A stretch of 64,000 nucleotides of DNA from a virus. The notes beneath the pieces are model-generated. The model saw only the letters and a program-made list of their open reading frames with translations. It was not told the origin of the DNA and did no database searches. Below, piece by piece: positions 929-64,000 of this stretch (position 1 is the stretch's first letter; the number at the start of each line of letters is the position of its first letter). The DNA lies in the IMG/VR virus record IMGVR_UViG_3300045988_135485, one strand, 5' to 3'. Made by a program: the position numbers and the translations under genes.

Positions 929-1777
929 TTAAATTGTTAAACTAAAAGTTCCTAATTTTTCCTGAGCCACGTCTATCTGTCCATTTCCAGCAAAAAAGTG
1001 TTCCTGAATATCCTTAACCGGTACAGGAATAAAACTGACCAGATTGTACCATGTCTGTAATTCTCCCGAATGATAGGCATCGGCTATTTTATTGGCTAAT
1101 ACTTCCGACAGTTCCTCTGCTAATAGATTCTCAAGACTACCCTGCATACTCTGTAAAAGGTCACTAAATAAAACAAGGTCTTCTTCTTTTCCATATTCAA
1201 GATAGAAGAATACAGTTAAGAAATCTTTAGCATAGTCACTTAACTTATTCCAAGCCGCTTCGCCGAACCCTTTCACTCCCGGTATATTATCAGAGGGGTC
1301 GCCGACTAACATTTTATAAGTCTTTACCCATTTTGGCTCTACCGCTGGTTCTTTAAGCGTTCCTATATTTGGAGAGATTCTTAACTGTGTCAGGTCTCGG
1401 TCAGTGGACACAATGTCCATCTTATCGTCATTAGAGGCCATTTTAACTGTAATAGTAGCTATAACGTCATCAGCTTCATATTCTGGAACCTCGACTGTTT
1501 TCACATTTATAGGAGCGTACTTAAGCAACTCCTTAAAAAACTTCATACCATCATAAATAGACTGGTCAGCAGGTTTCCTCTTCGCTTTATATGCAGGGTA
1601 AATAGCTTTCCTCTTTTTACGGGAATTGACACCATCAAAGATACAGAAGATAAGGTCTTTCTGGTTCGCACCAGCAAGAATTTCCTGCCACAATGTAAAA
1701 AGAGAGGCACCGCCCATAGATTCTGCCATCTTTACGCGCAGCCAGTTATTCATATCGTAGATTAAAATTCTTCGCAT
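929..1777 (-). CDS. 5'-3' exonuclease / flap endonuclease (PolI 5'-exo, T4 RNaseH, T5 D15 family)
   Basis: GDPSDNIPGVKGFGEAAW helix-3-turn-helix motif plus acidic clusters (EYEADDVIAT, STDRDL). Start moved to ATG 1777 (MRRILIY) behind a GGGAGA SD. The first 56 codons of the track ORF are low-complexity and overlap the upstream gene. Confidence 0.75.
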   Translation of the reverse strand: MRRILIYDMNNWLRVKMAESMGGASLFTLWQEILAGANQKDLIFCIFDGVNSRKKRKAIYPAYKAKRKPADQSIYDGMKFFKELLKYAPINVKTVEVPEYEADDVIATITVKMASNDDKMDIVSTDRDLTQLRISPNIGTLKEPAVEPKWVKTYKMLVGDPSDNIPGVKGFGEAAWNKLSDYAKDFLTVFFYLEYGKEEDLVLFSDLLQSMQGSLENLLAEELSEVLANKIADAYHSGELQTWYNLVSFIPVPVKDIQEHFFAGNGQIDVAQEKLGTFSLTI

Positions 1778-15539: not shown

Positions 15540-15561
15540 ATTATTCTCCTTTCAATTACAT

Positions 15562-15613
15562 CCTTACATAGCACCCTTACATAGCACCCTTACATAGCAC
15601 CCTTACATAGCGT
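15562..15613 (-). repeat. 4 x 13-bp tandem repeat (transcribed strand GTGCTATGTAAGG) = array of SD-ATG-TAA start-stop units
   Basis: ccttacatagcac x4 on the plus strand. Intergenic between two same-strand genes. Confidence 0.7.
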
Positions 15614-19032: not shown

Positions 19033-19082
19033 TTTTATGTTCCTTTCAATTTCTGTTCAATTTTCCTATTCTTCTTTCAATT

Positions 19083-19100
19083 TGTTCCAACGTTGGAACA
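19083..19100. promoter_or_regulatory. 18-bp perfect palindrome TGTTCCAACGTTGGAACA (copy 1), candidate operator
   Basis: Self-complementary 18-mer about 50 bp upstream of the 18721-19032 gene. Confidence 0.6.
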
Positions 19101-19118
19101 ACTTGGGTAATTTTATGG

Positions 19119-19784
19119 TTAAATCATTTTTATAAACTTTTTCGCCTCTTCAACTGAAAAAGCTTTGCAAAAATCATCCGGGAAATTGTTATACATTGCT
19201 TCAAAAGCTTTATCAAAGTCGCTATCAATAAAGCCGCTTAAATTATCCTCCTCTTCATCATTTCTAAAAAGATGATACTCCCAACATTCGCAGTTGGCCC
19301 AATCAGAATACTGTTTAACTTCCGTCTTTACCCAATAATCGATTTTTTTCTTAAATTTGACAGAAATCCGATGCTTTTTAAATTCCCGGTAAATATGTGC
19401 CTTTTTTACTAAATAGAAACCTATACATCCGCAATCCCAGCCAGTTGATTTTCCAATAAACATATTCCATCCGCTGTGGTCGTAGACAGATACAGGATAA
19501 ACAATAAAACCCATTTCCTCTAAACGTTTTTTGTCTGTCTGGTAATTACCAGATGACCAATCGGAAAAGTCGCCTGTTTCTGTAAGTTCATTCTCAACGT
19601 ACTCACAAGAATTTTTTACAAAAAACTTACCAATAAGGCAATCACAATCGTTGCGAGGATTGTCGCAGAACCGGTCTCTGGTTATTTCAATTCTCCAGTT
19701 CTCTAATTTAGGGTCAATAACTCCCGGCAATTCATACTGAATCTCGTTCTGGATTACGTTCTGAATCTCGTTTGCATTAATCAT
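19119..19784 (-). CDS. hypothetical Cys-rich protein
   Basis: Start moved to ATG 19784 (MINANEIQ) behind AGGAAAGG. The track start at 19841 is a TTG inside the palindrome. Confidence 0.35.
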   Translation of the reverse strand: MINANEIQNVIQNEIQYELPGVIDPKLENWRIEITRDRFCDNPRNDCDCLIGKFFVKNSCEYVENELTETGDFSDWSSGNYQTDKKRLEEMGFIVYPVSVYDHSGWNMFIGKSTGWDCGCIGFYLVKKAHIYREFKKHRISVKFKKKIDYWVKTEVKQYSDWANCECWEYHLFRNDEEEDNLSGFIDSDFDKAFEAMYNNFPDDFCKAFSVEEAKKFIKMI

Positions 19785-19833
19785 AACTTGTTCCTTTCCT
19801 AAAACAAATTCAAGTTGTTCAAGTGGTTTAAGT

Positions 19834-19851
19834 TGTTCCAACGTTGGAACA
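19834..19851. promoter_or_regulatory. palindrome copy 2 (perfect)
   Basis: About 50 bp upstream of ATG 19784. Confidence 0.6.
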
Positions 19852-20405
19852 TTTACATTCTTCTAGAATGTTAATAATTTAGTTTTGTCTAAATAAGATG
19901 AAAAAATATTTTTGTGCTGTATTTGTCTAAAAATTAACCTACTTTTGAGTATGTAAAAATAGGTCGAAATTTACATACAAATTGGTATATATAATAATTT
20001 GTTGCTGTCTTCCTAAATTGTGTATTTGTGTATTTTCGGAAATGTATCCAAAAATACATCTGAAGATACGCAACCAATAAGCCAACTATTAAACCAGTCA
20101 ATAAAATGGTTATTAAACCAGTCATTAAACCCCACTTTTTTAGGCAGTGGTTGCATACACTGTCCTCTCTGGTACCCCCCTACCTGAAAGTAGGCTCATA
20201 TTACTCACAGCTAAAATTTTGAAGATTTTACCATCTTGAGAAAAGACACAGAGGCGGGGGCGTTTCTCAAAAAGGTCAAATTCGAGTTTTACAACCATGT
20301 TTTGTTTGGCATATTTCACGATTAAGTCGGATAAGTTCTTTACCATCGTTTGTTTCCTTTCAGTTGTGTTACCATGGTTTGTTTACCATGGTTTGTTTGC
20401 TAGGT

Positions 20406-20423
20406 TGTTCCAACGTTGGAACA
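20406..20423. promoter_or_regulatory. palindrome copy 3 (perfect)
   Basis: About 60 bp upstream of the small ORF 20140-20346. Confidence 0.6.
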
Positions 20424-21170
20424 ATCTTAAAATGAACGCGGAATCTTTTCCCAAAATTCTCCCCAAATTGATTCCGGATTTTGTTTCCAAATCTCGTCCG
20501 GAATCTGGTCCGGATTCTGGTCGGAATTGTCGCCGGAAAAAGTACTCAGTTTTATTCCCTCCCTAGACAAAGAGACGGAATTTTGAAAAAAAGGTATTAT
20601 TCTACCTTTTTTGGACAGAAAAATGAAAAAAACTAGAACCAAGATAGAACAATTATTTCACCATCTTTGACCAAGTTGTTGTTTTTACTCTTTTGTCTAG
20701 TTTTTTTTTGAGTTGACAGACTATTTTAAATTGTCTCTATATAGAATTTTTTTATAAATACCCCATAGGGTATATTTATCTTATTTTTTTTCCGTGAATC
20801 TTAAAAAAAAAAAAAAATCTATTTTAGACAAAATATATAAAAACAATGGGTTAGATGTAAACTACTCCAGTGGTGTTCTAATAATGTTCAAGTGGTTAAA
20901 AAAAAGCGGGTCCTTATTTTATTGTATAAGTTTCATTTGTCTAATTTGTCAGATGTTTTTTCTTGGTTTTTCAATGGCTTATTTTATTTTCTCCTTATAT
21001 AGTAAAAATGATACGTTTCAGTCTAAAAAGTGGTTCTTTGTCTAGACTGTGAAAGTGCTTGAAACGGGGAACGCCTTTGTCTATCTGGCATAGACGGGGT
21101 GTGGACGAAATTCCGCCCTTTCTTCTGTCAAGAAAATGTCTAACAGTCTAAAATCGACAAAATCTGTCAA

Positions 21171-21188
21171 TTTTCCAACGTTGGAACA
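21171..21188. promoter_or_regulatory. palindrome copy 4 (17/18)
   Basis: TTTTCCAACGTTGGAACA. Confidence 0.5.
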
Positions 21189-21200
21189 CGGAGTCAATTT

Positions 21201-21218
21201 TGTTCCAACGTTGGAACT
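21201..21218. promoter_or_regulatory. palindrome copy 5 (17/18)
   Basis: TGTTCCAACGTTGGAACT, 13 bp from copy 4. Confidence 0.5.
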
Positions 21219-21336
21219 TTTTCGGAATCCCTTAATATGATTCCAAAACTTTTTCGCGCGCCATCTTAAGCGGCCATTTAATATATAAATTAAAGAAAAA
21301 TAAAGAAAAGATATAAAGAGAATCCCGCCCGGGACT

Positions 21337-21354
21337 TGTTCCAACGTTGGAACA
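21337..21354. promoter_or_regulatory. palindrome copy 6 (perfect)
   Basis: Followed by the direct repeat cccggattcctgcccggattcctgcccgg. Confidence 0.6.
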
Positions 21355-21386
21355 AATCCCGGATTCCTGCCCGGATTCCTGCCCGG

Positions 21387-22552: not shown

Positions 22553-22770
22553 ACACTTTTTTTAGTAAGTCATTGTTTTTGCGTGATTCTTTTTTTATGT
22601 TAAGTTTATTATAAGGTATACACACGGGCACGTGCTATACATGCAAACGTAACCTTTACATATAGGCCGGGTGATAGGGGTGTAGGCTTTTTATATGGGA
22701 GAATAAAAAGGTGGCGGAGAACAGGCCCCGATTCTGACCCCCCGCCCAAAACCATTTCCACCTAACACAA

Positions 22771-22842
22771 CCTACCAACTTACCTACCAACTTACCTACC
22801 AACTTACCTACCAACTTGCCTACCAACTTGCCTATCACCTGA
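22771..22842. repeat. 6 x 12-bp tandem repeat CCTACCAACTTA (iteron-like)
   Basis: Three perfect units, two with one substitution each (last A to G), and one degenerate unit. Confidence 0.8.
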
Positions 22843-22845
22843 CAG

Positions 22846-22909
22846 GACCGCGAACGCGAGCGCAGTCACTTTCGTGTTCGCGGTCGCATTCGCGGTCACG
22901 TTCGTTTTC
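22846..22909. repeat. GTRTTCGCGGTC repeat cluster (one inverted copy + two direct copies + a degenerate copy)
   Basis: gaccgcgaac ... gtgttcgcggtc gcattcgcggtc acgttcg. The same 12-mer recurs at 63846-63893. Confidence 0.75.
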
Positions 22910-23050
22910 ATTTTTGAGGTTCTCAGCAAGGGGAACGACCACGAACACGAACGCAAAAGCCGACATAAACTTGACAAGAATCTTAACCAGAACTAGAATC
23001 TTAACAGTCGACCAGAATAATCGACCAGAACAGGGAGGGAGAAACAACAA

Positions 23051-52856: not shown

Positions 52857-54008
52857 ATGGCCAATAACGACGATATTACAGATTACAATTACCCTAACAT
52901 TGAACCTACTGACTATATTGATGAATCTTTACCCAATATATTGGCCAGAGATGATGCTTCCAAACATGGGTTCAGGCGTGTTTCCACTTTCCCGACTGTG
53001 ACTACGGACGACGTTGGTATGAGGGTATATATGAGGGGACGTGGGAACTTTCAGTTAATTTCAGCTGACCCCGAGCCCCAATGGAAACAACTGTCCGAAG
53101 ACAATCGTAATCCTGCTTATACAGATTGGGTGAAGGACAACTATCAACCCCTTAGTAAAATATTGACCACTCTTTCAAAATTAAAAGAAGCCCAGCAAGC
53201 AGTCCCTTATTTTAACGGGCCGGAAGATATGCAAGCTGTCACGATTACTAGATATATGCTGGCTCTTTTTGAGGCTACGGATGACGCTGAGGTCAGGGAA
53301 TTGCTTAACTTAGGTTCAGCTGCAACCATTGACGTTCCTATTGATGGAAAATACATTGCAGACGGGTCTATCACAATGGATAAGGTCAGTACCCAATTTA
53401 AACAATCTTTAGGCTGGACTACTGGCGATGCAAAGTTGACCTTTAAAAAAACGGCTGATGAAGGTTGGATAATGCTTGATGACGGCTCTATTGGTTCTTC
53501 TGCTTCCGGAGCAACAACACGGGCTAATTCCGATACCTATGACTTGTTTATGTTAATGTGGGACATTCCTTATTGTGAAATCCAGACCTTCTCCGGGACC
53601 TCTTCCACGAAGACAACAGCAATCCAAGATTGGTCTGCAAATAAAAGATTGGTCTTGCCAAAGTTCTTAGGTCGTGCCATCGCCTGCGCCGGTCAAGGTT
53701 CCGGATTAACGAAACGGTCGCTTGGTGAATCGTTGGGAGAGGAGAACACCGTCTTAGGCATTAATCAGCTCCCGCGCCATAATCACGGGGACTTGGTGTC
53801 AATTCAATCCAACGTCGGTAGTAAGAACGGCAGAATTGCTTATTGGGTAGGCTCTAGGCAATACAACAGACTCGGGCGCACCGATGAACATACAATCATA
53901 GAAGAGGACGATTACTATGCCGGTACCGCTGAAGCTGGCGGTGGAGGTAATGCAGGCCATAACACAATGCAGCCGACCACATTCGTAAATGTGATGCTGA
54001 AGCTTTAG
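52857..54008 (+). CDS. tail fibre protein with switchable C-terminal tip (expressed variant)
   Basis: 383 aa. The constant part runs to about 53748. The tip ends HNTMQPTTFVNVMLKL. Its last 260 nt lie inside a segment bounded by 62-bp inverted repeats. Confidence 0.6.
   Translation: MANNDDITDYNYPNIEPTDYIDESLPNILARDDASKHGFRRVSTFPTVTTDDVGMRVYMRGRGNFQLISADPEPQWKQLSEDNRNPAYTDWVKDNYQPLSKILTTLSKLKEAQQAVPYFNGPEDMQAVTITRYMLALFEATDDAEVRELLNLGSAATIDVPIDGKYIADGSITMDKVSTQFKQSLGWTTGDAKLTFKKTADEGWIMLDDGSIGSSASGATTRANSDTYDLFMLMWDIPYCEIQTFSGTSSTKTTAIQDWSANKRLVLPKFLGRAIACAGQGSGLTKRSLGESLGEENTVLGINQLPRHNHGDLVSIQSNVGSKNGRIAYWVGSRQYNRLGRTDEHTIIEEDDYYAGTAEAGGGGNAGHNTMQPTTFVNVMLKL
53687..53748. repeat. left inverted repeat of the invertible tail-fibre segment (coding, in-frame)
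   Basis: cgccggtcaaggttccggattaacgaaacggtcgcttggtgaatcgttgggagaggagaaca is the exact reverse complement of 54260-54321. Confidence 0.9.
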
Positions 54009-54035
54009 TTAATCGGAACTAGTTAATCGACAGTA

Positions 54036-54365
54036 TCAAAGCTTTAACATTACGTTCACAAAAACGGTTGGTTGCATAACATTAAACGGTTTACTTTCTC
54101 CGGCTGTACCCATAGATATATCCGGCTCCTGTCCTCTTTGATAAAGATTGTGACCGTCACGGTGGAATGTAAAGTTTCCTGTGTACCTATCAGAATAAAC
54201 GGGAACCTTATTCTTTAAATCGTGGTCGTGTGCTGCTAGTTCTTCAACAGTCATCGTATGTTTCTCCTCTCCCAACGATTCACCAAGCGACCGTTTCGTT
54301 AATCCGGAACCTTGACCGGCGCAAGATTCTAATTCAGTGTTGACTTTCTTACTATTTAGTATATC
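54036..54365 (-). other. silent alternative tail-fibre C-terminal cassette (no own ATG or SD)
   Basis: On the minus strand the frame reads through the right IR in the same frame as the expressed gene: ...SLGESLGEEKHTMTVEELAAHDHDLKNK...FNVMQPTVFVNVMLKL*. It shares the HxHxDL and C-terminal MQPTxFVNVMLKL motifs with the expressed tip. A TAG stop at 54366-54368 lies upstream with no start codon after it. Confidence 0.7.
54260..54321. repeat. right inverted repeat of the invertible segment
   Basis: Reverse complement of 53687-53748, 62/62 identical. Confidence 0.9.
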
Positions 54366-54384
54366 CTAAAGTAAGGAGGTAGCC

Positions 54385-54864
54385 ATGAACTTATCAGATA
54401 ATTTTACACTTGAAGAATTTACTTACTCTTCAACCGCTGAACAAAGAGGGATAAACAATAATATTCATGACCCAGAAACGATTATACCTAATGCAAGAGC
54501 TTTATGCCAAAAAGTTCTTCAGAAAGTAAGAGACCATTTTGGACCTATTGTTATTTCTTCTGGTTATAGTAATGCCCAGCTCTGTCTGGCCTTAGGCAGG
54601 AAGACGACAAGTCAACACGCACTGGGACAAGCTGCGGACATAATCTCGAACTCGGTACCGAATTATGACCTTGCAGTATGGATAAGAGACCACCTTGAAT
54701 TTGACCAGCTTATCTACGAAGTCCGTCGTCGGGGCTTATCTAAAGAATATTATGACTGGGTTCACGTCAGCTATAAAAGAGAGGGACGGAATCGGAAAGA
54801 AGTTCTTTTCTCTCCTCCGGAAAAAGGCTACAAAAACGGCTTGCCGGAGACGAGCTATGTCTAG
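54385..54864 (+). CDS. endolysin, peptidase M15 (VanY / L-Ala-D-Glu peptidase-like zinc peptidase)
   Basis: AAGGAGGT SD. FTLEEF...SGYRS-like...TSQHALGQAADI...DWVHVSY gives the His/Asp/His zinc ligand pattern of M15-family phage lysins. Confidence 0.6.
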   Translation: MNLSDNFTLEEFTYSSTAEQRGINNNIHDPETIIPNARALCQKVLQKVRDHFGPIVISSGYSNAQLCLALGRKTTSQHALGQAADIISNSVPNYDLAVWIRDHLEFDQLIYEVRRRGLSKEYYDWVHVSYKREGRNRKEVLFSPPEKGYKNGLPETSYV

Positions 54865-55189
54865 TCCTGTAAAATATCTTATTTTGGTAATAGGCGTAAT
54901 CGTTGTCTATGCCGCCTTGGTAACGCACGACCTTAATAGAACCGAAGAAAAGTTGGCTGAAAGGGATGAATATATTACCAAGCTAGAATCTAATTTAAAT
55001 TATATTAGTAATCAATTAATATTGGTACAAAAGGCAGCTGAGGAGAGAGAGCTTGAGTATCAGCAAATAGATGCTGAGAAAGAGGCACAAGAAAAAGAGT
55101 TGGAAAAAATAAAGGAGACCGACGATGATAGTAAAAACTGGCTTCTTCAAGTTATTCCTGCTGCTGTCGACAATACTATTCCTTACTAG
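54857..55189 (+). CDS. i-spanin (Rz-like)
   Basis: ATG 54857 overlaps the endolysin stop (ATGTCTAG). N-terminal TM (LILVIGVIVVYAALV) followed by a coiled coil. Confidence 0.55.
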   Translation: MSSPVKYLILVIGVIVVYAALVTHDLNRTEEKLAERDEYITKLESNLNYISNQLILVQKAAEERELEYQQIDAEKEAQEKELEKIKETDDDSKNWLLQVIPAAVDNTIPY

Positions 55190-55373
55190 CTGTACAAGGG
55201 GCGAGAAAATCGTCCCTGTCACAATCTCGGCTAATCTTCTGGAAGAGTGCCCGGTTCCGAAAAGAACCCGCTACAGGAATGATTATTTAAGAAAATATAC
55301 AGTGGATTTACATAAAGCACTTTTAAAGTGCAACGCCGATAAGAGAGCAATTAAAAAGGAACTGGGTTATTGA
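55125..55373 (+). CDS. o-spanin (Rz1-like outer-membrane lipoprotein)
   Basis: Signal peptide plus lipobox LFLTSC. Starts inside the i-spanin gene in another frame. Confidence 0.55.
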   Translation: MIVKTGFFKLFLLLSTILFLTSCTRGEKIVPVTISANLLEECPVPKRTRYRNDYLRKYTVDLHKALLKCNADKRAIKKELGY

Positions 55374-57054: not shown

Positions 57055-59028
57055 TTAGTCTCCATTTCCTAATTGTACATAGTGGTCAGCTTCAATGTCT
57101 CTGTGAGATACCAAAATAACTTGGTTTATATATTTTGAAATCTTTTTAAGACAATTGGCTGTTAATTGTGCCCGGTCTTCTCTCATTGACGCGTCAATCT
57201 CATCTCCGATAAAGACACTAAACACTTTATGGGTTAAGACCTGTCCTAAGCCAAGTCTTAAGGCAAGGTTAATCATAGCCTGTTCCGAACCTGAGAACAG
57301 ATTTATTTCTCGTCCTTCCACAAGAATATCGAAGTCAGGACTGATTGTAATCTCGTTAAACAATCCATCAGACATATCAGAAAGTAAATGAGAACTTACT
57401 TTCTGAAGAGAAGGAAGAACATATCCCTTAATCTTAACTTTCATCTCTTTCAGATTCTCGGCAGCTTTCTTATAGCGACCTCCTTCTCTTGCAAATGTAT
57501 CAGCCCTTTCTTTGGCTCTGTCATAATCCTCTTTTTTAGACTGCCAAAGTTTTATTTGCGTATCGTACTCTTGACATTGATGATACAGAAATGCTAATGC
57601 GTCCTTCTTTTGTTCCATATCTGTAAGCTTAAAATTAGCATATTTAACAGCTAAAGAATCATATTCATGCTTCTTACATTCATAGCTTGTTTTCATAGAT
57701 TCATAGTTTACTCTATCCTTCTCATAAGCTAATTTGGTCTGTAAATCTTCAAGAGTGTAATTAGGAAGGTTGGCCATTTTAGCAGAAATCTCCGCTTCTT
57801 CCCTTTCCTTTTGGTCATACATATCCCAATCCCGAAGGAGATTGCTGGCCTCAACACCTTGTAAAATAGGTTTTACACATTCTTCAACCTTAGGAATTTT
57901 GTTAAATTCGTTTTGATAATTTATTAGCTGTTGTTGTCTTTGGAGACCGTCAAAAGAAAGTTTAGGTTCTTCAAATGGAGGGGGAGTAGGCTCTGTCATT
58001 TGACTGCTGAAGACATGACCGCACTTCGGGCATGTTTGTTTTCTGATATTAAACTTGGTCAGTTCAAGATGGTAAATATCCCACACATCCTTCTTTCTTT
58101 TTTCTTCATCCAGTTCTTTTTGCGTAAAGATAGGTTTTTCTTGTCTAGAGAAGAAATCCGTCTTTGCCAGATATTGTTGGTATTCTTGATAGGCTTTATT
58201 TTGCCTAATCATTTCTTCCAGTTCTGGACGGGTATATTTAGGCTTAACAGTATCAGCAAATTGAAGCAGCTTGGTCTCATACTCTTTTCTGAGCGCGATT
58301 GTGTTGCTAATCTCACTCGCTTCCACATTCCTGATTGTTTCAGAGTATTTATCGTCTGGATTCTCTGGTTCTATTGGTTCTTCCATAGATTGAAAAATAC
58401 TATACTCTGTCAGTTCCATTTTACATTTTTCGTAATCTTGTGCAATTTGTAAAATAGGACGGTAACCCTCTGGCGCGACCGGCTCTTCTCCCGGGTCTAT
58501 TAACAGGCCACGAATCGCTTTCTCTTCATGAGAAAATTCTAAAGCCTTATCATTGGTATATTTAATAAGCTTGTCAATAATCCCTATTCCCAACGTCTTA
58601 TCTAACGCAGTCTTTCTTTCGGAAGGCTTCATATTTCCAAGACCAAGTATATCTAACTGGGCTGCATAATTTCCCATTTTATAAACATTATAATCATAAC
58701 CAAGTAAGGATATAATCTTGATATTACATGGCTTAGTTCCTGTGCATAAGAGAGTTCCTTGACTATCATACAATTTACAATTCTTGGTAGTTCTCTCAAT
58801 CTTGTAGTCTTTTCCTTTCACGCTCAACCAGACAGTAATAGATAAGTCTTTATAATCGTCGACTTTTCCACGAAGAGCTACACTGCCGAAAACCGCGAAG
58901 GACATATATTCTACCAGCAGGGATTTACCACAACCATTAGGACCGACAACAGCTGTCAATCCGTTTTCAAAAGAGATTATCTTTCCACCATGAATAGGAC
59001 CTTTTTCAATATTAACCTGCTTAAACAT
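57055..59028 (-). CDS. SbcC/Rad50-family ATPase (T4 gp46 / T5 D13-like)
   Basis: Walker A GPNGCGKS. Central coiled coil with a CPKCGH zinc hook. The C-terminal helix LFSGSEQAMINLALRL carries an ABC-signature-like SGSEQ, and VSHRD is the D-loop. 4-bp overlap with the SbcD-like gene. Confidence 0.75.
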   Translation of the reverse strand: MFKQVNIEKGPIHGGKIISFENGLTAVVGPNGCGKSLLVEYMSFAVFGSVALRGKVDDYKDLSITVWLSVKGKDYKIERTTKNCKLYDSQGTLLCTGTKPCNIKIISLLGYDYNVYKMGNYAAQLDILGLGNMKPSERKTALDKTLGIGIIDKLIKYTNDKALEFSHEEKAIRGLLIDPGEEPVAPEGYRPILQIAQDYEKCKMELTEYSIFQSMEEPIEPENPDDKYSETIRNVEASEISNTIALRKEYETKLLQFADTVKPKYTRPELEEMIRQNKAYQEYQQYLAKTDFFSRQEKPIFTQKELDEEKRKKDVWDIYHLELTKFNIRKQTCPKCGHVFSSQMTEPTPPPFEEPKLSFDGLQRQQQLINYQNEFNKIPKVEECVKPILQGVEASNLLRDWDMYDQKEREEAEISAKMANLPNYTLEDLQTKLAYEKDRVNYESMKTSYECKKHEYDSLAVKYANFKLTDMEQKKDALAFLYHQCQEYDTQIKLWQSKKEDYDRAKERADTFAREGGRYKKAAENLKEMKVKIKGYVLPSLQKVSSHLLSDMSDGLFNEITISPDFDILVEGREINLFSGSEQAMINLALRLGLGQVLTHKVFSVFIGDEIDASMREDRAQLTANCLKKISKYINQVILVSHRDIEADHYVQLGNGD

Positions 59029-59968
59029 TCTCAGCCTCCGACATCTTATTTTCTAAATACTGGTTATAGACCTCCTCATATAAATTAAGATTGTCTAAAG
59101 CTTCGTGCATAAGCTTTTCAATATCAAACGGTTCAAAGTCTACATTCAGGTCTATTTCTTCTTTAGTTTCCTTGGGCTCAATATACTTTGACATTTGAAG
59201 GCATATTGGTCGTGAAGGAAGTTCTTCTCCCTCTTGCAGTTTAAGACGGTAGCAACGACCTTTTGAAATACCAAGAGAAAGGTCATATTCATATTCAGCA
59301 AGCGTACAGGTTCTCATAAAAGTATTTGTCGGGTCTTCGGCAAAGGTAAGGGGCATTATACTTCCAACTACTGTTAAATTACCTTCTTGACGAGGACTGT
59401 GAATATGTCCACTAAAGACTTGTTGGTAGCACAGCTTTAACCACTTTAGGTCAGCTTCTTCAAAATGACCATAAATGGTATAACCCCTATGGTTATAATT
59501 AGTAAGAACTTGAGGAAGTTCTTCGCTTGAATAGTAGGGAACTAAAAGATGTTCACCTATAAAACGAGGTTCTTCTATAAATCTAAGATTATCATAATTT
59601 TTGCACAGTCTTTTTAATATATCAAAAGCCGATATTCTTTCCTTATCTTTAGACTGGTCATGGTTCCCTTTTATAATGTAGCAAGGGCAATAGTTATAGG
59701 CAAAATTAATTACGACATTATAGACCTTTATAAGGTCATCGTAGCTGACACAGAAAGAATCGAAAAGGTCTCCAAGAATAATTACCCCTTCCTTGTTCTT
59801 TTCTCTGCAAGTTTCAATAGCCTTTTCTACCTTACGGTTAAATTGAGCCAATAGGACTTCTTCACGAACCCCTTTCATTTCCAAAGGAATATCTCTGGAA
59901 CGAAACTTACGTCCTATATGTACGTCGCCGATTAAAACAAATGGACTAGAATTATCAGATAAATTCAT
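59021..59968 (-). CDS. SbcD/Mre11-family nuclease (calcineurin-like phosphoesterase)
   Basis: IGDVHIG, ILGDLFD, IKGNHD and GHFE phosphoesterase motifs. Start moved to ATG 59968 (MNLSDN) behind GGGAGA. Confidence 0.75.
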   Translation of the reverse strand: MNLSDNSSPFVLIGDVHIGRKFRSRDIPLEMKGVREEVLLAQFNRKVEKAIETCREKNKEGVIILGDLFDSFCVSYDDLIKVYNVVINFAYNYCPCYIIKGNHDQSKDKERISAFDILKRLCKNYDNLRFIEEPRFIGEHLLVPYYSSEELPQVLTNYNHRGYTIYGHFEEADLKWLKLCYQQVFSGHIHSPRQEGNLTVVGSIMPLTFAEDPTNTFMRTCTLAEYEYDLSLGISKGRCYRLKLQEGEELPSRPICLQMSKYIEPKETKEEIDLNVDFEPFDIEKLMHEALDNLNLYEEVYNQYLENKMSEAENV

Positions 59969-60002
59969 ATTAATCTCCCAAGTAAAATCAATAGTGTTAG
60001 TG

Positions 60003-60260
60003 TCAGTGTTCTTCTTCCGGTCGGAGAAACAGGTTACAATGGCAATGTCCTGTTTCTTTAACATCCTCTTCCATAAGACTGCAAGGACATTCGTAATTAT
60101 TCTCCGGATGTGCTTCACGTTCTTTTGGCGAAACACAAGGACAATACCCGTTGCAGGCATTTACTCTGGCAATAATTTTCTCTGCATGAGGACTAAGAAT
60201 AAAGCCTTTCTTCTTAGCTATTTCTTGGTAATCTTCTAGAGTTAAAACATCTTTTTCCAT
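60003..60260 (-). CDS. small CPC/CPC/CHC protein resembling the ferredoxin-thioredoxin reductase catalytic chain
   Basis: CNGYCPCVSPKEREAHPENNYECPCSLMEEDVKETGHCHC. The spacing differs somewhat from the canonical CPC-X16-CPC-X8-CHC motif as I recall it. Confidence 0.35.
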   Translation of the reverse strand: MEKDVLTLEDYQEIAKKKGFILSPHAEKIIARVNACNGYCPCVSPKEREAHPENNYECPCSLMEEDVKETGHCHCNLFLRPEEEH

Positions 60261-60832
60261 TATTTTTCTCCCTTGTATTTTTGAGTGTATTTAATAAGTT
60301 CCATAACTTGAAATTTAACATCGGCTAATGCATTATGAGCGTCGTCCGATTCCAGTCTCAGTTCCGGAAGCGGTTCCGGAAACATAATACCCAACAGATA
60401 ACTTCTCATATCTCTGGCCTTCCAGTATTTAAATGGATTTTGAAATCCATACATACGAAAATATTTATCTAGCAGGGCAAAGTCAAAGTGACTAGGCTTT
60501 GACCAAAAATGTTTAGCTGGGCCTTCAACTCTATTCCATCTAATAAAACTATTTATAACTTCTTTAGGATTTAAGGATTTCTTTGTAATCTCATCAAGGA
60601 TTATCTTCCTTTTTGGATTCGATACCCACCAATTAAGGGTTTTTGCTTCCCAGAGGTATCCTTCCGGTAACAATAGACAAGAATCAAATTCGGGACCGAT
60701 AATTCCTTTCTCTAAATTGAACATAACAGCTGACAGCTGAATAACCCCGGCAGTAGCTATACTCGTACCGGTTGTTTCAACGTCGACCATAATATCGGTC
60801 CACTCTACCTTCTGATTATTTAAAGCTTCCAT
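60260..60832 (-). CDS. DEDD-family 3'-5' exonuclease (DnaQ-like)
   Basis: Exo I DVETTG, Exo II-like SHFDFALLD, Exo III DDAHNALADV. Start at ATG 60832 behind GGGAGA. Confidence 0.65.
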   Translation of the reverse strand: MEALNNQKVEWTDIMVDVETTGTSIATAGVIQLSAVMFNLEKGIIGPEFDSCLLLPEGYLWEAKTLNWWVSNPKRKIILDEITKKSLNPKEVINSFIRWNRVEGPAKHFWSKPSHFDFALLDKYFRMYGFQNPFKYWKARDMRSYLLGIMFPEPLPELRLESDDAHNALADVKFQVMELIKYTQKYKGEK

Positions 60833-60863
60833 AATGTCTCCCAAGTAAAAAAGTAGCTTTATT

Positions 60864-61328
60864 TTAAAACGGTACTTCTGGAAAGTCAATATAAAAATGA
60901 ATCATGTCTTCCCAAGTATAGTCACTCACCAACTCCTGATAATTAATGAAGTACCATTCTCTTCTCTCTGTACTGTAGATAAGATAGACATAGTTTCCAC
61001 CAGCTACGGCTATCTTATATCTCTCTGAAGCTTGAGTAGAGAAAAGACTGCCGGTTAGGCCTTTTTTACTGGTAGAGGTTTTTATTTCACAGAAATAAGT
61101 TATACCGTTCATAATTAACATTATATCACAAGGTTTTCGTGGAAGAACAACTTTCTTCTGACCTGTCCCCCAGCGGCCTTTATTGGCATCATAAGTATCA
61201 GAGAATCTGGCAACGTAGATATACTTACTTTTTTTGGACAACCATTTAATAATAAAATCCTCGGCTATCTTTCCGGCTTGGGACGGACTGATTTCTTTTC
61301 CGTTTATCAGCATCGTAGACTTTACCAT
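60864..61328 (-). CDS. putative PD-(D/E)xK nuclease
   Basis: D(IMLIM)...CEIK spacing resembles a PD-ExK core. Start at ATG 61328 behind AGGAGA. Confidence 0.3.
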   Translation of the reverse strand: MVKSTMLINGKEISPSQAGKIAEDFIIKWLSKKSKYIYVARFSDTYDANKGRWGTGQKKVVLPRKPCDIMLIMNGITYFCEIKTSTSKKGLTGSLFSTQASERYKIAVAGGNYVYLIYSTERREWYFINYQELVSDYTWEDMIHFYIDFPEVPF

Positions 61329-61338
61329 AAATTTTCTC

Positions 61339-61860
61339 CTAACCAAGCGCCAATGCTGTCCACGTTCCTTCCCATGCTGGTCTAAAACGTCCACCAATTA
61401 AAAGCTTTGATTGGCCAGTTTCGTTAATTATTTTTGGAATAAGAACTTGTCCTCCATCAGCGTCCCTAACTTGGATGATGGGGTGCAAATGACCTATACC
61501 ATGTTGAAACAGGAAATAACCCTCACTGTCCAGATTATCGTATGTAAAGGTTTGTGAAATCACGTTACCACTTACTACAATATCTGATATGAGTATCTTT
61601 CCTACCAAATAGTATTCCAAGTCCCCTTCCTTTTCTTTATAAGGAAGGACAAAGGTATCAGGCGTGCTACCGTCTTCGCCACCGATTTTTTCGTACAAAG
61701 CGGCCCACTCTGTTTTGGATACCTCTGTGTTCGGTACGCTGATACGCAGAGTTCCTGCTGGAGGTTCGGCTGAATAAGAAGGGATGGTGCTTCCTATCCG
61801 GTCGTAAAAGAGTTCAAAATCTTTTAAACGGGAGGTACTGACAAGAGTTGTCTCTGACAT
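61339..61860 (-). CDS. hypothetical protein (His-rich motif HGIGHLHPIIQVRDADGG)
   Basis: SD GGGAGGT. Fold not recognised. Confidence 0.35.
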   Translation of the reverse strand: MSETTLVSTSRLKDFELFYDRIGSTIPSYSAEPPAGTLRISVPNTEVSKTEWAALYEKIGGEDGSTPDTFVLPYKEKEGDLEYYLVGKILISDIVVSGNVISQTFTYDNLDSEGYFLFQHGIGHLHPIIQVRDADGGQVLIPKIINETGQSKLLIGGRFRPAWEGTWTALALG

Positions 61861-63644: not shown

Positions 63645-63828
63645 TTTTCTCCTTATTAATGGTTTCGTTCTTTTTCTCCGGTACCATTGAACAGAACAAT
63701 TTACCCATAGGAGTTTTCTTCAGTTCTTGGTCAATGATAAGGGAGGCTTTTTTTAGATTGTCTAAACACCATTTTCTTGCCGTAGCATTTCCTAAAACGT
63801 ATCCGACAACTAATCCAAGCCCCCTCAT
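63622..63828 (-). CDS. hypothetical small protein (first gene downstream of the 12-bp repeat array)
   Basis: ATG at 63828 (MRGLGLVVGY...). The track ORF extends into repeat-derived low complexity. Confidence 0.25.
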   Translation of the reverse strand: MRGLGLVVGYVLGNATARKWCLDNLKKASLIIDQELKKTPMGKLFCSMVPEKKNETINKEKNDDRRTD

Positions 63829-63845
63829 TTTACGCCTTCGCTTTC

Positions 63846-63893
63846 GTATTCGCGGTCGTGTTCGCGGTCGTATTCGCGGTCGTGTTCGCGGTT
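63846..63893. repeat. 4 x 12-bp tandem GTRTTCGCGGTC
   Basis: gtattcgcggtc gtgttcgcggtc gtattcgcggtc gtgttcgcggtt. Same unit as at 22874-22897, about 41 kb away. Confidence 0.8.
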
Positions 63894-64000
63894 GTCTGTT
63901 CAGCGACTGTCTGTGGCGTAGGAGTTGTCTGAGTCCCCGACGGGAAAGCAACCGGAAAACAACTCGGCTTAATGCGGCATAAAATAGACGCGTGAACCGG

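Follow-up and report, generated by a model that had tools for sequence, protein, structure and literature searches.

The 64,000-nucleotide (nt) viral DNA of IMG/VR record IMGVR_UViG_3300045988_135485, analysed here over its whole length and referred to as the window, carries a side tail-fibre gene whose 3' end lies inside a segment bounded by perfect inverted repeats. Comparison with public relatives shows that this segment is inverted in nature, and recurrently so. We propose that the locus is a two-state receptor-binding switch in the side tail fibre that is flipped by homologous recombination, without a dedicated invertase, and we give this reading a probability of a little under 0.6.

Anatomy of the invertible segment

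The fibre open reading frame (ORF) at 52857-54008 encodes 383 amino acids (aa). The two arms of the inverted repeat, delimited with a repeat finder and base-by-base extension, lie at 53685-53746 and 54262-54323; they are 62 nt long and 100% complementary, and identity is random from the first base outside and inside each arm. The segment between them, 53747-54261, measures 515 nt. An initial annotation of the window had already recognised perfect inverted repeats of 62 base pairs (bp); their identity stands, while the coordinates given there (53687-53748 and 54260-54321) are 2 nt off and the segment is 515 bp rather than 511 bp long. A 62/62 match between the arms cannot be chance, and the repeat is the sole long perfect dispersed repeat within the 64-kb window. 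The features of the locus are as follows.

52857-53684, plus strand: constant part of the fibre ORF, residues 1-276, including the first half of a tail-collar-like domain
53685-53746, plus strand: left arm, in frame, encoding CAGQGSGLTKRSLGESLGEE (aa 277-296)
53747-54008, plus strand: tip A, the end of the ORF and expressed here, NTVLGINQLPRHNHGD...MQPTTFVNVMLKL and then a stop; silent on the opposite strand in form-B genomes (see below)
54006-54033, no strand assigned: spacer between the convergent stops, with the 14-nt tandem unit TAGTTAATCGGAAC
54036-54261, minus strand: tip B, the silent cassette, KHTMTVEELAAHDHDLKNK...MQPTVFVNVMLKL, joined to the constant part after inversion
54262-54323, minus strand: right arm, in the same frame as tip B
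54324-54384, no strand assigned: outer flank of the right arm, in which the minus-strand frame is closed by a TAG

As the initial annotation held, both arms are coding and in the frame of the fibre. The left arm is read from codon 277, and on the minus strand a frame that matches that of the fibre stays open between the TAG at 54366-54368 and the stop at 54036-54038 and includes the right arm. Fused to the constant part, this minus-strand frame would encode a protein of 371 aa. The direct repeat noted earlier between the two stops is present as well (54006-54015 and 54020-54029) and is a 14-nt tandem unit, of which there are two copies in the window, three in L119 and four in L099 and L118 (L and P numbers denote loci and proteins, respectively, throughout).

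Both orientations of the segment occur in nature

A scan of IMG/VR for exact matches to the 62-mer returned four contigs, all from one metagenome. They match the window in their flanks at 96-99% identity (mostly 98-99%), and all four carry the segment flipped. It is also flipped relative to the window in contigs L010-L013 from the European Nucleotide Archive (ENA), and a scan of Joint Genome Institute (JGI) metagenomes contributed six further loci. With flanks that are 98-100% identical, form A, the orientation of the window, is found in L110 and L112-L119, and form B, the opposite orientation, in L001, L004, L010-L017, L099-L101 and L155.

The same two states are found among the encoded proteins. 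The 90% cluster of P0001 holds proteins of 383 aa and of 371 aa. The tip swap that had been predicted as the product of inversion exists as the 371-aa protein P0121 (form B, 22 contigs), in which tip B follows residues 1-296 that are identical to those of the 383-aa protein P0128 (form A, 6 contigs). A strain variant, 'RAV', is likewise seen in both forms (P0123 and P0122). The 72-aa ORF of silent tip B (P0135), a marker of form-A genomes, is present on 28 contigs, and ten such places were read.

An assembly artefact, in which orientation is chosen arbitrarily at a repeat longer than the k-mer, was ruled out as the source of the two forms. Form A is found on MEGAHIT contigs built at k127 and k99 and form B on contigs built at k119 and k141; both forms are thus recovered at k = 99-141, which exceeds the 62 nt of the repeat.

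On a neighbour-joining tree built from 600 nt of the left flank and 1600 nt of the right flank, forms A and B are interleaved. L012 (form B) and L112 (form A) are sisters that share a rare 64-nt variant of the repeat, L100 (form B) and L115 (form A) are sisters with 11 differences over the flank alignment, and a 61-nt variant of the repeat is present in both orientations. The interleaving of the two orientations therefore requires at least three independent inversions within ~1% divergence. Both isomers are present and orientation is uncorrelated with phylogeny, on the flank tree and by contig counts, which is the pattern expected of flip-flop isomerisation.

A 43.9-kb IMG/VR contig (3300045988_123405; L003/L015) has its terminus precisely at the outer edge of the right arm. 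This end fits a branching of the assembly graph, which mixed orientations or mixed strains in that sample would give. The short contig L122, considered as a possible within-sample bubble signature, was dropped as an uninformative low-coverage fragment.

The two arms evolve in concert

Nine haplotypes of the repeat occur among the >30 loci, and within each genome one arm is identical to the other. Relative to the repeat of the window, the L018/L102 lineage has nine synonymous and two non-synonymous changes among the 62 positions and L111 has seven synonymous changes, each of them on both arms. Two young single-nucleotide polymorphisms (SNPs), a non-synonymous one at repeat position 6 (L155, L156) and another at position 53 (L011), are also found on both arms. 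Moreover, the edges of the arms have gained one further identical position by each of three independent substitutions, C>T at left -1 (L012, L112), T>C at right -1 (L156) and A>C at inner +1 (L099), and this homogenisation ran in both directions. A conservative site-specific crossover at a fixed point moves sequence and cannot copy a change from one arm to the other, something that heteroduplex formation and repair can do. The SNPs shared near both ends, together with the homogenised edges, therefore demonstrate gene conversion over the whole repeat. The perfect identity of the arms had been taken as a sign of ongoing switching or gene conversion, and the co-variation of the arms across lineages bears this out. 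Arms that are identical within a genome and diverged between genomes are a further mark of flip-flop isomerisation.

The ~60-nt flank outside the right arm is homologous among the cassette-bearing lineages and absent from cassette-less relatives; the cassette therefore has a single origin, after which its arms have changed in concert. In relatives at 54-68% identity (P0003, P0005, P0022) a lone tip is followed by the endolysin gene within 10-20 nt, which makes the cassette a derived feature of one sub-lineage. The majority of relatives lack a cassette and have just one tip, and tips have been swapped among them at exactly this junction, which therefore appears to be a general recombination joint of the family. 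One tip swap in inverted orientation would create the switch. Within the sub-lineage the partner tip has itself been exchanged, the pair being A/B in the window lineage and B/C in L018 and L111, and the cassette has been kept with identical arms through this exchange and through at least 18% divergence of the repeat. At L018:5113-5433 and L111:4116-4458 the third tip type (KITLTAGNIPAHKHGINVNSGSGGK...) occupies the silent slot, and tip B is expressed.

The repeat compared with known crossover sites

The repeat has no core of a recombinase type that is conserved between lineages, and no hix/gix, Mpi or sfx-like site was found in it. Its best match to the hix/gix consensus, TTMTCNNAAACCNNGGTTTNNGAKAA, has 9 of 20 specified positions wrong, and the best match to the sfx core in the region has 4-5 of 13 positions wrong. 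The best internal dyad of the window repeat, 12+2+12, pairs at 9/12 positions; the value is 8/12 in L111 and 4/12 in L018, and the repeat as a whole differs at 7-11 of 62 positions between lineages. A conserved 17-nt core, GCCGGTCAAGGTTCCGG, was weakened as a candidate recombinase site by L111, which is changed within it. A site common to this repeat and to a second invertible region, described below, was not found.

The fibre family and the two tips

The constant part of the fibre is conserved across 43 relatives and matches PHROG tail and tail-fibre families, and the 383-aa protein is one of a large family of phage fibres from gut metagenomes (197 matches). The family alignment is conserved up to ...LGRAxxxAGxGxGLTxRxLGxxxGEE, is hypervariable from there and ends in NNMQPTxFxNxMIKL; the repeat coincides exactly with the border between the conserved and the hypervariable part. 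By tblastn, aa 187-383 are 33% identical to a 'tail collar domain protein' of Bordetella phages. PHROG 8763 'tail protein' matches the fibre with E=4e-20, and JGI labels relatives 'microcystin-dependent protein'. In the comparison with collar-domain receptor-binding proteins (Pfam Collar PF07484), the 383-aa protein has no Pfam match at E<=0.01 and the cassette matches just Gp10_C, weakly (E=0.003). GenBank phages contain no near-identical DNA match and, by tblastn, only the distant Bordetella-phage collar proteins; sequence and profile searches of the PDB found no relative of the fibre. An AlphaFold2 monomer model of the fibre has a predicted local distance difference test (pLDDT) score of 62 overall and of <50 over the tip.

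Neither tip is disrupted, and each is in frame and conserved. Between the window and the P0002 lineage, tip B is 93% identical, and it resembles the sole tip of the cassette-less relatives P0022 and P0043; since it is the only tip that other phages have, it is a functional tip. The 72 aa of its ORF P0135 make up the C-terminal half of the collar-like domain and are homologous to the end of tip A. We infer that tips A and B bind different receptors.

The initial annotation had described the cassette as lacking an ATG or Shine-Dalgarno sequence of its own. That description needs correcting, as an in-frame ATG (54254-54252, the M of KHTMTV) lies within tip B, 9 nt after the Shine-Dalgarno-like GGAGAGGAG (both within 54252-54275), and public gene callers annotate the 72-aa ORF P0135 from it. 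The ATG is probably incidental, because the silent A cassette of form-B genomes has no corresponding ATG. On the minus strand, a sigma-70-like match, TTGGCA-18-TATAAT (11/12), at 54510-54481 inside the endolysin gene points to the silent cassette; the promoter scan returned 12 sites where shuffled sequences gave an expectation of 6.4. Such a promoter combined with the ATG could yield antisense transcription or a truncated product, and both are probably incidental.

Genome context and the search for an invertase

The window together with L010-L013 and L094-L098 covers the whole genome, which is ~74 kb long, and contigs of 72-76 kb have a consistent gene order; a genome size of ~100 kb, suggested by the locus coordinates of contig 119754, was dropped for this reason. 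The gene content of the window comprises a terminase, a capsid protein, a 1499-aa tape-measure protein and a lambda gpJ-like tip protein, followed by fibre-like proteins. The opposite strand encodes a primase-polymerase, an SNF2 helicase, a 5'-3' exonuclease, an SbcCD-like pair, an exonuclease, a resolvase-like protein and MazG. No integrase or repressor module was recognised in the phage, and a tRNA scan found none. The phage looks like a virulent siphovirus with a lambda-type tail from the human and primate gut.

Among nearly all ORFs of the window, Pfam gave no match to Resolvase, Phage_integrase, IS110-type or other recombinase families, and PHROG scans found no recombinase among the larger unannotated window proteins. 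The earlier statement that no Hin-like or tyrosine recombinase is recognisable in these 64 kb thus holds. It had also been suggested that the invertase might lie outside the window. The remaining ~10 kb of the genome, read in relatives with precomputed Pfam matches and our own scans, holds no serine, tyrosine or DEDD recombinase, and this suggestion is therefore refuted.

Several proteins were considered as hidden recombinases and set aside. Beside the second region, proteins of 625 aa and 187 aa appear to be structural (BppL_N, F5/8 type C), a 126-aa protein is endonuclease-VII/HNH-like, and the two extra genes by the right arm in L119 are tail-needle-like or without assignment. These two genes (L119:1251-2352) are inserted between the right arm and the endolysin gene, at the equivalent of window 54324-54384, and encode 90 aa and 275 aa, the latter with a weak match to a 'tail needle protein' PHROG.

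Genes with possible roles in recombination are present in the window.

57055-59028, minus strand: SbcC-like nuclease (Pfam SMC_N; with the next gene an SbcCD-like pair that matches PHROG 77 and PHROG 100)
59021-60160, minus strand: SbcD-like nuclease (Pfam Metallophos; second member of that pair)
60260-60889, minus strand: exonuclease (PHROG 255 exonuclease)
60864-61397, minus strand: Holliday-junction-resolvase-like protein (PHROG 843 resolvase, E=1.8e-5)
929-1777, minus strand: 5'-3' exonuclease, FEN / T7 gp6-like (Pfam 5_3_exonuc_N, E=1.5e-22; a 282-aa gene in relatives)

The exonuclease/resolvase-like block, 60260-61397, also has a Pfam Rv2179c-like match, and an endonuclease-VII-like protein is encoded just outside the window. 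The SbcCD-like, exonuclease, 5'-3' exonuclease and resolvase-like genes are candidate recombination functions that may take part in the inversion.

The immediate neighbours of the fibre locus are those named in the initial annotation, an M15 endolysin (54385-54864) and spanins (54695-55373), both identified with Pfam. On the plus strand, the outer flank at 54324-54384 has TTGACT-16-TATCCT and AAGGAGG ahead of the endolysin gene. Beyond the right end of the window, relatives carry small genes, a fibre-like module and DNA polymerase A; beyond the left end they carry a DNA methyltransferase, a homing endonuclease, polymerase A and the same fibre-like module as on the right. The window itself begins inside the gene for an N6-adenine DNA methyltransferase with an NPPY motif, the 5' part of which occupies positions 1-617 on the minus strand. 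Around DNA polymerase A relatives vary, with an HNH/NUMOD4 homing endonuclease and a PAPS-reductase-like gene present or absent.

Five or six copies of a perfect palindrome of 18-20 bp, TTGTTCCAACGTTGGAACAA, lie at window 19075-21368, where genes are sparse, between the leftward early genes and the module that follows, and look like operator or regulator-binding sites. Short tandem arrays occur at window 22770-22916, 63821-63912 and 15548-15612. Those with a 12-nt period are ACCTACCAACTT x5 and, at two distant places, CGCGGTCGTGTT-like arrays, and one with a 13-nt period is CCCTTACATAGCA x4. Two CGCGGTCG arrays are mutually similar though 41 kb apart, and some of the short arrays lie in or beside small ORFs.

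A second, shufflon-like region

Relatives of the window have a second variable region about 2.8-4.9 kb past position 64000, downstream of a gene for a discoidin (F5/8-type-C) fibre-like protein of 464-656 aa (L011:5139-6599, L012:5131-6597, L013:5155-6621, L096:18594-20048 and L010:4322-6617). It contains up to four copies of a ~27-nt repeat, GTCGTATAACTTCTGTTATGAATAAT, in alternating orientation and with the dyad ATAAC-N4-GTTAT. The ATGAATAAT of this repeat, which carries an ATG, starts each of four small ORFs (82-158 aa), one of which has a Gp53-like_C domain. The left and right contexts of the repeat are reassorted in L011, L012, L013 and L096, and the order and orientation of the cassettes vary by strain. 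A 2-nt variant of the repeat (GTCTC) stays with the left context in every arrangement, and the crossovers therefore fall within the shared 21 nt.

No recombinase gene was found near the second region. A host shufflon that uses the same site was rejected: paired copies of the site were found in none of 185,579 species-representative genomes, and the 32 single matches, in unrelated taxa, are about the number expected by chance. The phage family may run two switches of receptor-binding proteins, the fibre-tip flip and a four-cassette shufflon, without a recombinase of a known family in its ~74-kb genome.

Mechanism and alternative explanations

Since no invertase is recognisable in the ~74-kb genome, the flip is most likely made by ordinary homologous recombination. 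Recombination between the arms would flip the 515-bp segment, after which the constant part (aa 1-276) and the repeat (aa 277-296) would be read into tip B, giving 371 aa, and not into tip A, giving 383 aa. With the flip, the part of the tail-collar-like domain that faces the receptor, its second half, would change, and presumably so would the range of hosts or receptors. Inversion would be the crossover resolution of the same intermediates that yield gene conversion, and the machinery may consist of the SbcCD-like, exonuclease, resolvase-like and endonuclease-VII-like proteins of the phage, of host functions, or of both.

Several points weigh against a flip by homologous recombination. With 62 bp, the repeat offers little length for homologous recombination to be efficient, and the genome has no recognisable strand-exchange or annealing protein; a 285-aa protein beside the exonuclease is without matches. 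Among the samples fetched, none yielded both forms as assembled contigs. An 11-nt stretch of the repeat, CAAGGTTCCGG, is invariant and could hide a small site, and the outer edge of the repeat falls in the same codon in three lineages. The arms can undergo conversion even where the host supplies a site-specific invertase in trans; in P1, which has a site-specific invertase of its own, the long repeats are homogeneous too. Finally, the second region looks more like the product of site-specific recombination, which would imply that a recombinase is available to these phages, and this is the main reason why a trans-acting or unrecognised recombinase stays a live rival.

Such a recombinase, either a host or prophage invertase or a phage protein of an unrecognised family, would act at a site hidden in the conserved part of the repeat, leaving homologous recombination with no role beyond maintaining the identity of the arms. 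We regard this as a possible but doubtful explanation. The locus has the layout of the Gin, Cin, Pin and Min switches, and e14 Pin is an example of an invertase from elsewhere that can flip Mu G; the stable outer edge of the repeat and the invariance of CAAGGTTCCGG would suit a hidden site, as would the 12+2+12 dyad of the window repeat with its 9/12 pairs. The second region, moreover, reshuffles its four cassettes at dyad repeats of ~21-27 nt with crossovers seemingly at a fixed place, and the phage has many small proteins without an assigned function among which an enzyme might be sought. However, no known recombinase family is represented anywhere in the genome, the repeat varies between lineages at 7-11/62 positions without conservation of its dyad, and it is unlike hix/gix, Mpi, sfx or the site of the second region. 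The copying of SNPs near both repeat ends to the other arm is unlike the outcome of a fixed-point crossover. As for a host enzyme, the second-region site is never paired in the species-representative genomes, and a virulent phage that relied on a host invertase would lose its switch in many hosts. We think it unlikely that one of the phage's own unannotated proteins is a site-specific DNA invertase from an unrecognised family that serves one or both loci.

The remaining explanations deny either the switch or the second tip. If the cassette were a leftover of tip exchange, an inverted partial duplication with only one functional form, its two orientations would be rare neutral inversions or strain recombinants and no programmed switch would exist. 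The prevalence of single-tip, cassette-less relatives would agree with this, as would the lack of within-sample coexistence among the fetched samples and the breaks of some contigs at the repeat (L003/L015), which are possibly strain mixtures. We nevertheless consider a non-functional leftover quite improbable: each tip is conserved, intact and in frame, other phages have tip B as their sole tip, both orientations are common and the flips recur at least three times within ~1% divergence, and the cassette has persisted with identical arms through at least 18% repeat divergence and a change of partner tip. It is more improbable by far that the minus-strand frame is an independent small gene of 72 aa, such as a fibre chaperone, and not an alternative tip. 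Its in-frame ATG behind GGAGAGGAG, the annotation of P0135 by gene callers and the strong sigma-70-like match at 54510-54481 that points at the ORF speak for such a gene; with 12 promoter sites found where shuffles gave 6.4, however, a match there is weak evidence, and the reciprocal silent A cassette has no start. The 72 aa are, furthermore, the C-terminal half of a collar-like domain, homologous to the end of tip A, and many genomes have this sequence fused to the constant part.

Implications

Host-range switching by fibre inversion is textbook knowledge for temperate phages with a Hin-type invertase. Here the same outcome would be reached in a prevalent, virulent-looking gut siphovirus without a recognisable invertase; the index of the assembly collection lists marker proteins of the phage in about 370-440 blocks. 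If homologous recombination between in-frame repeats of 62 bp suffices, any phage that picks up a second, inverted tip could evolve a receptor switch for bet-hedging, and searches that require a nearby recombinase would miss such switches. Metagenomic phage genomes, and the host predictions made from them, may differ by isomer, and flipping may occur in engineered or therapeutic phages whose fibre modules are repeated. The locus also offers a natural system for measuring short-homology recombination in gut phages.

Comparison with known systems

The Mu G-like architecture proposed in the initial annotation is confirmed, with a constant fibre part, an in-frame inverted repeat and two convergent tips, and both isomers exist in nature. 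As in Mu G/Gin, P1 C/Cin, e14 P/Pin and p15B Min, inverted repeats inside the coding sequence of a tail fibre bound an invertible segment, a constant N-terminal part is followed by convergent alternative C-terminal parts without starts of their own, and receptors are presumed to alternate. Unlike in those systems, a Hin-family serine recombinase (Resolvase PF00239 plus helix-turn-helix) is found neither adjacent to the segment nor elsewhere in the genome, and there is no 26-bp hix/gix-type site, the best match having 8-9/20 specified positions wrong. The Fis-dependent enhancer of the Hin family normally lies inside the invertase gene, and there is no such gene here. The 515-bp segment consists of the two tips and a 27-nt spacer, without genes for fibre-assembly chaperones of the U/U' type, the arms show gene conversion along their whole length, and the phage is virulent-looking whereas those of the Gin, Cin, Pin and Min switches are temperate. 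Lacking both the invertase gene and the crossover-site consensus, the locus is not a member of that class.

With the R64 shufflon and with surveyed programmed inversions, the locus shares the swapping of C-terminal coding segments of an adhesin-type protein. It differs from R64 in having no rci-type tyrosine recombinase gene, no sfx-like 19-bp repeat and, at the fibre locus, a single segment; the second region, with its four cassettes, is shufflon-like. The diversity-generating retroelement (DGR) of Bordetella phage BPP-1, which acts on Mtd, likewise diversifies the receptor-binding C-terminus of a tail fibre, and the nearest annotated phage homologues of the collar-like domain are, as with BPP-1, from Bordetella phages. 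A DGR has a direct template/variable pair, adenine-specific differences and mutagenesis, whereas here the repeats are inverted and identical and there are two discrete states; no reverse transcriptase family was matched anywhere in the scanned ORFs of the window and its relatives.

In a survey of gene-altering programmed inversions, which covers bacterial genomes and prophages and not virulent phages, tail-fibre and tail-collar proteins are enriched targets, and some invertible regions have no recombinase close by (Milman et al. 2023, PMC9881135). In a 2026 paper, the authors describe the few candidates that they report as the first putative invertons from gut viral genomes in metagenomes. In the Anabaena cyanophages A-1(L), N-1 and Elbi, a segment of ~30 kb flanked by inverted repeats occurs as two isomers, no dedicated recombinase is evident and homologous recombination has been raised as a possibility (bioRxiv 10.64898/2026.02.14.705889). 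As in these cyanophages and in plastid flip-flop, the two isomers at the fibre locus are found in close relatives without correlation with phylogeny, the repeats are identical within a genome and diverged between genomes, and no dedicated recombinase is evident. By this analogy, the mechanism appears closest to the flip-flop isomerisation of inverted repeats. In cyanophages and plastids the repeats are 400-700 bp or longer, large gene blocks are turned and no protein is changed; at the fibre locus the repeat is 62 bp long and intragenic, and the flip gives a receptor-binding protein a different C-terminus.

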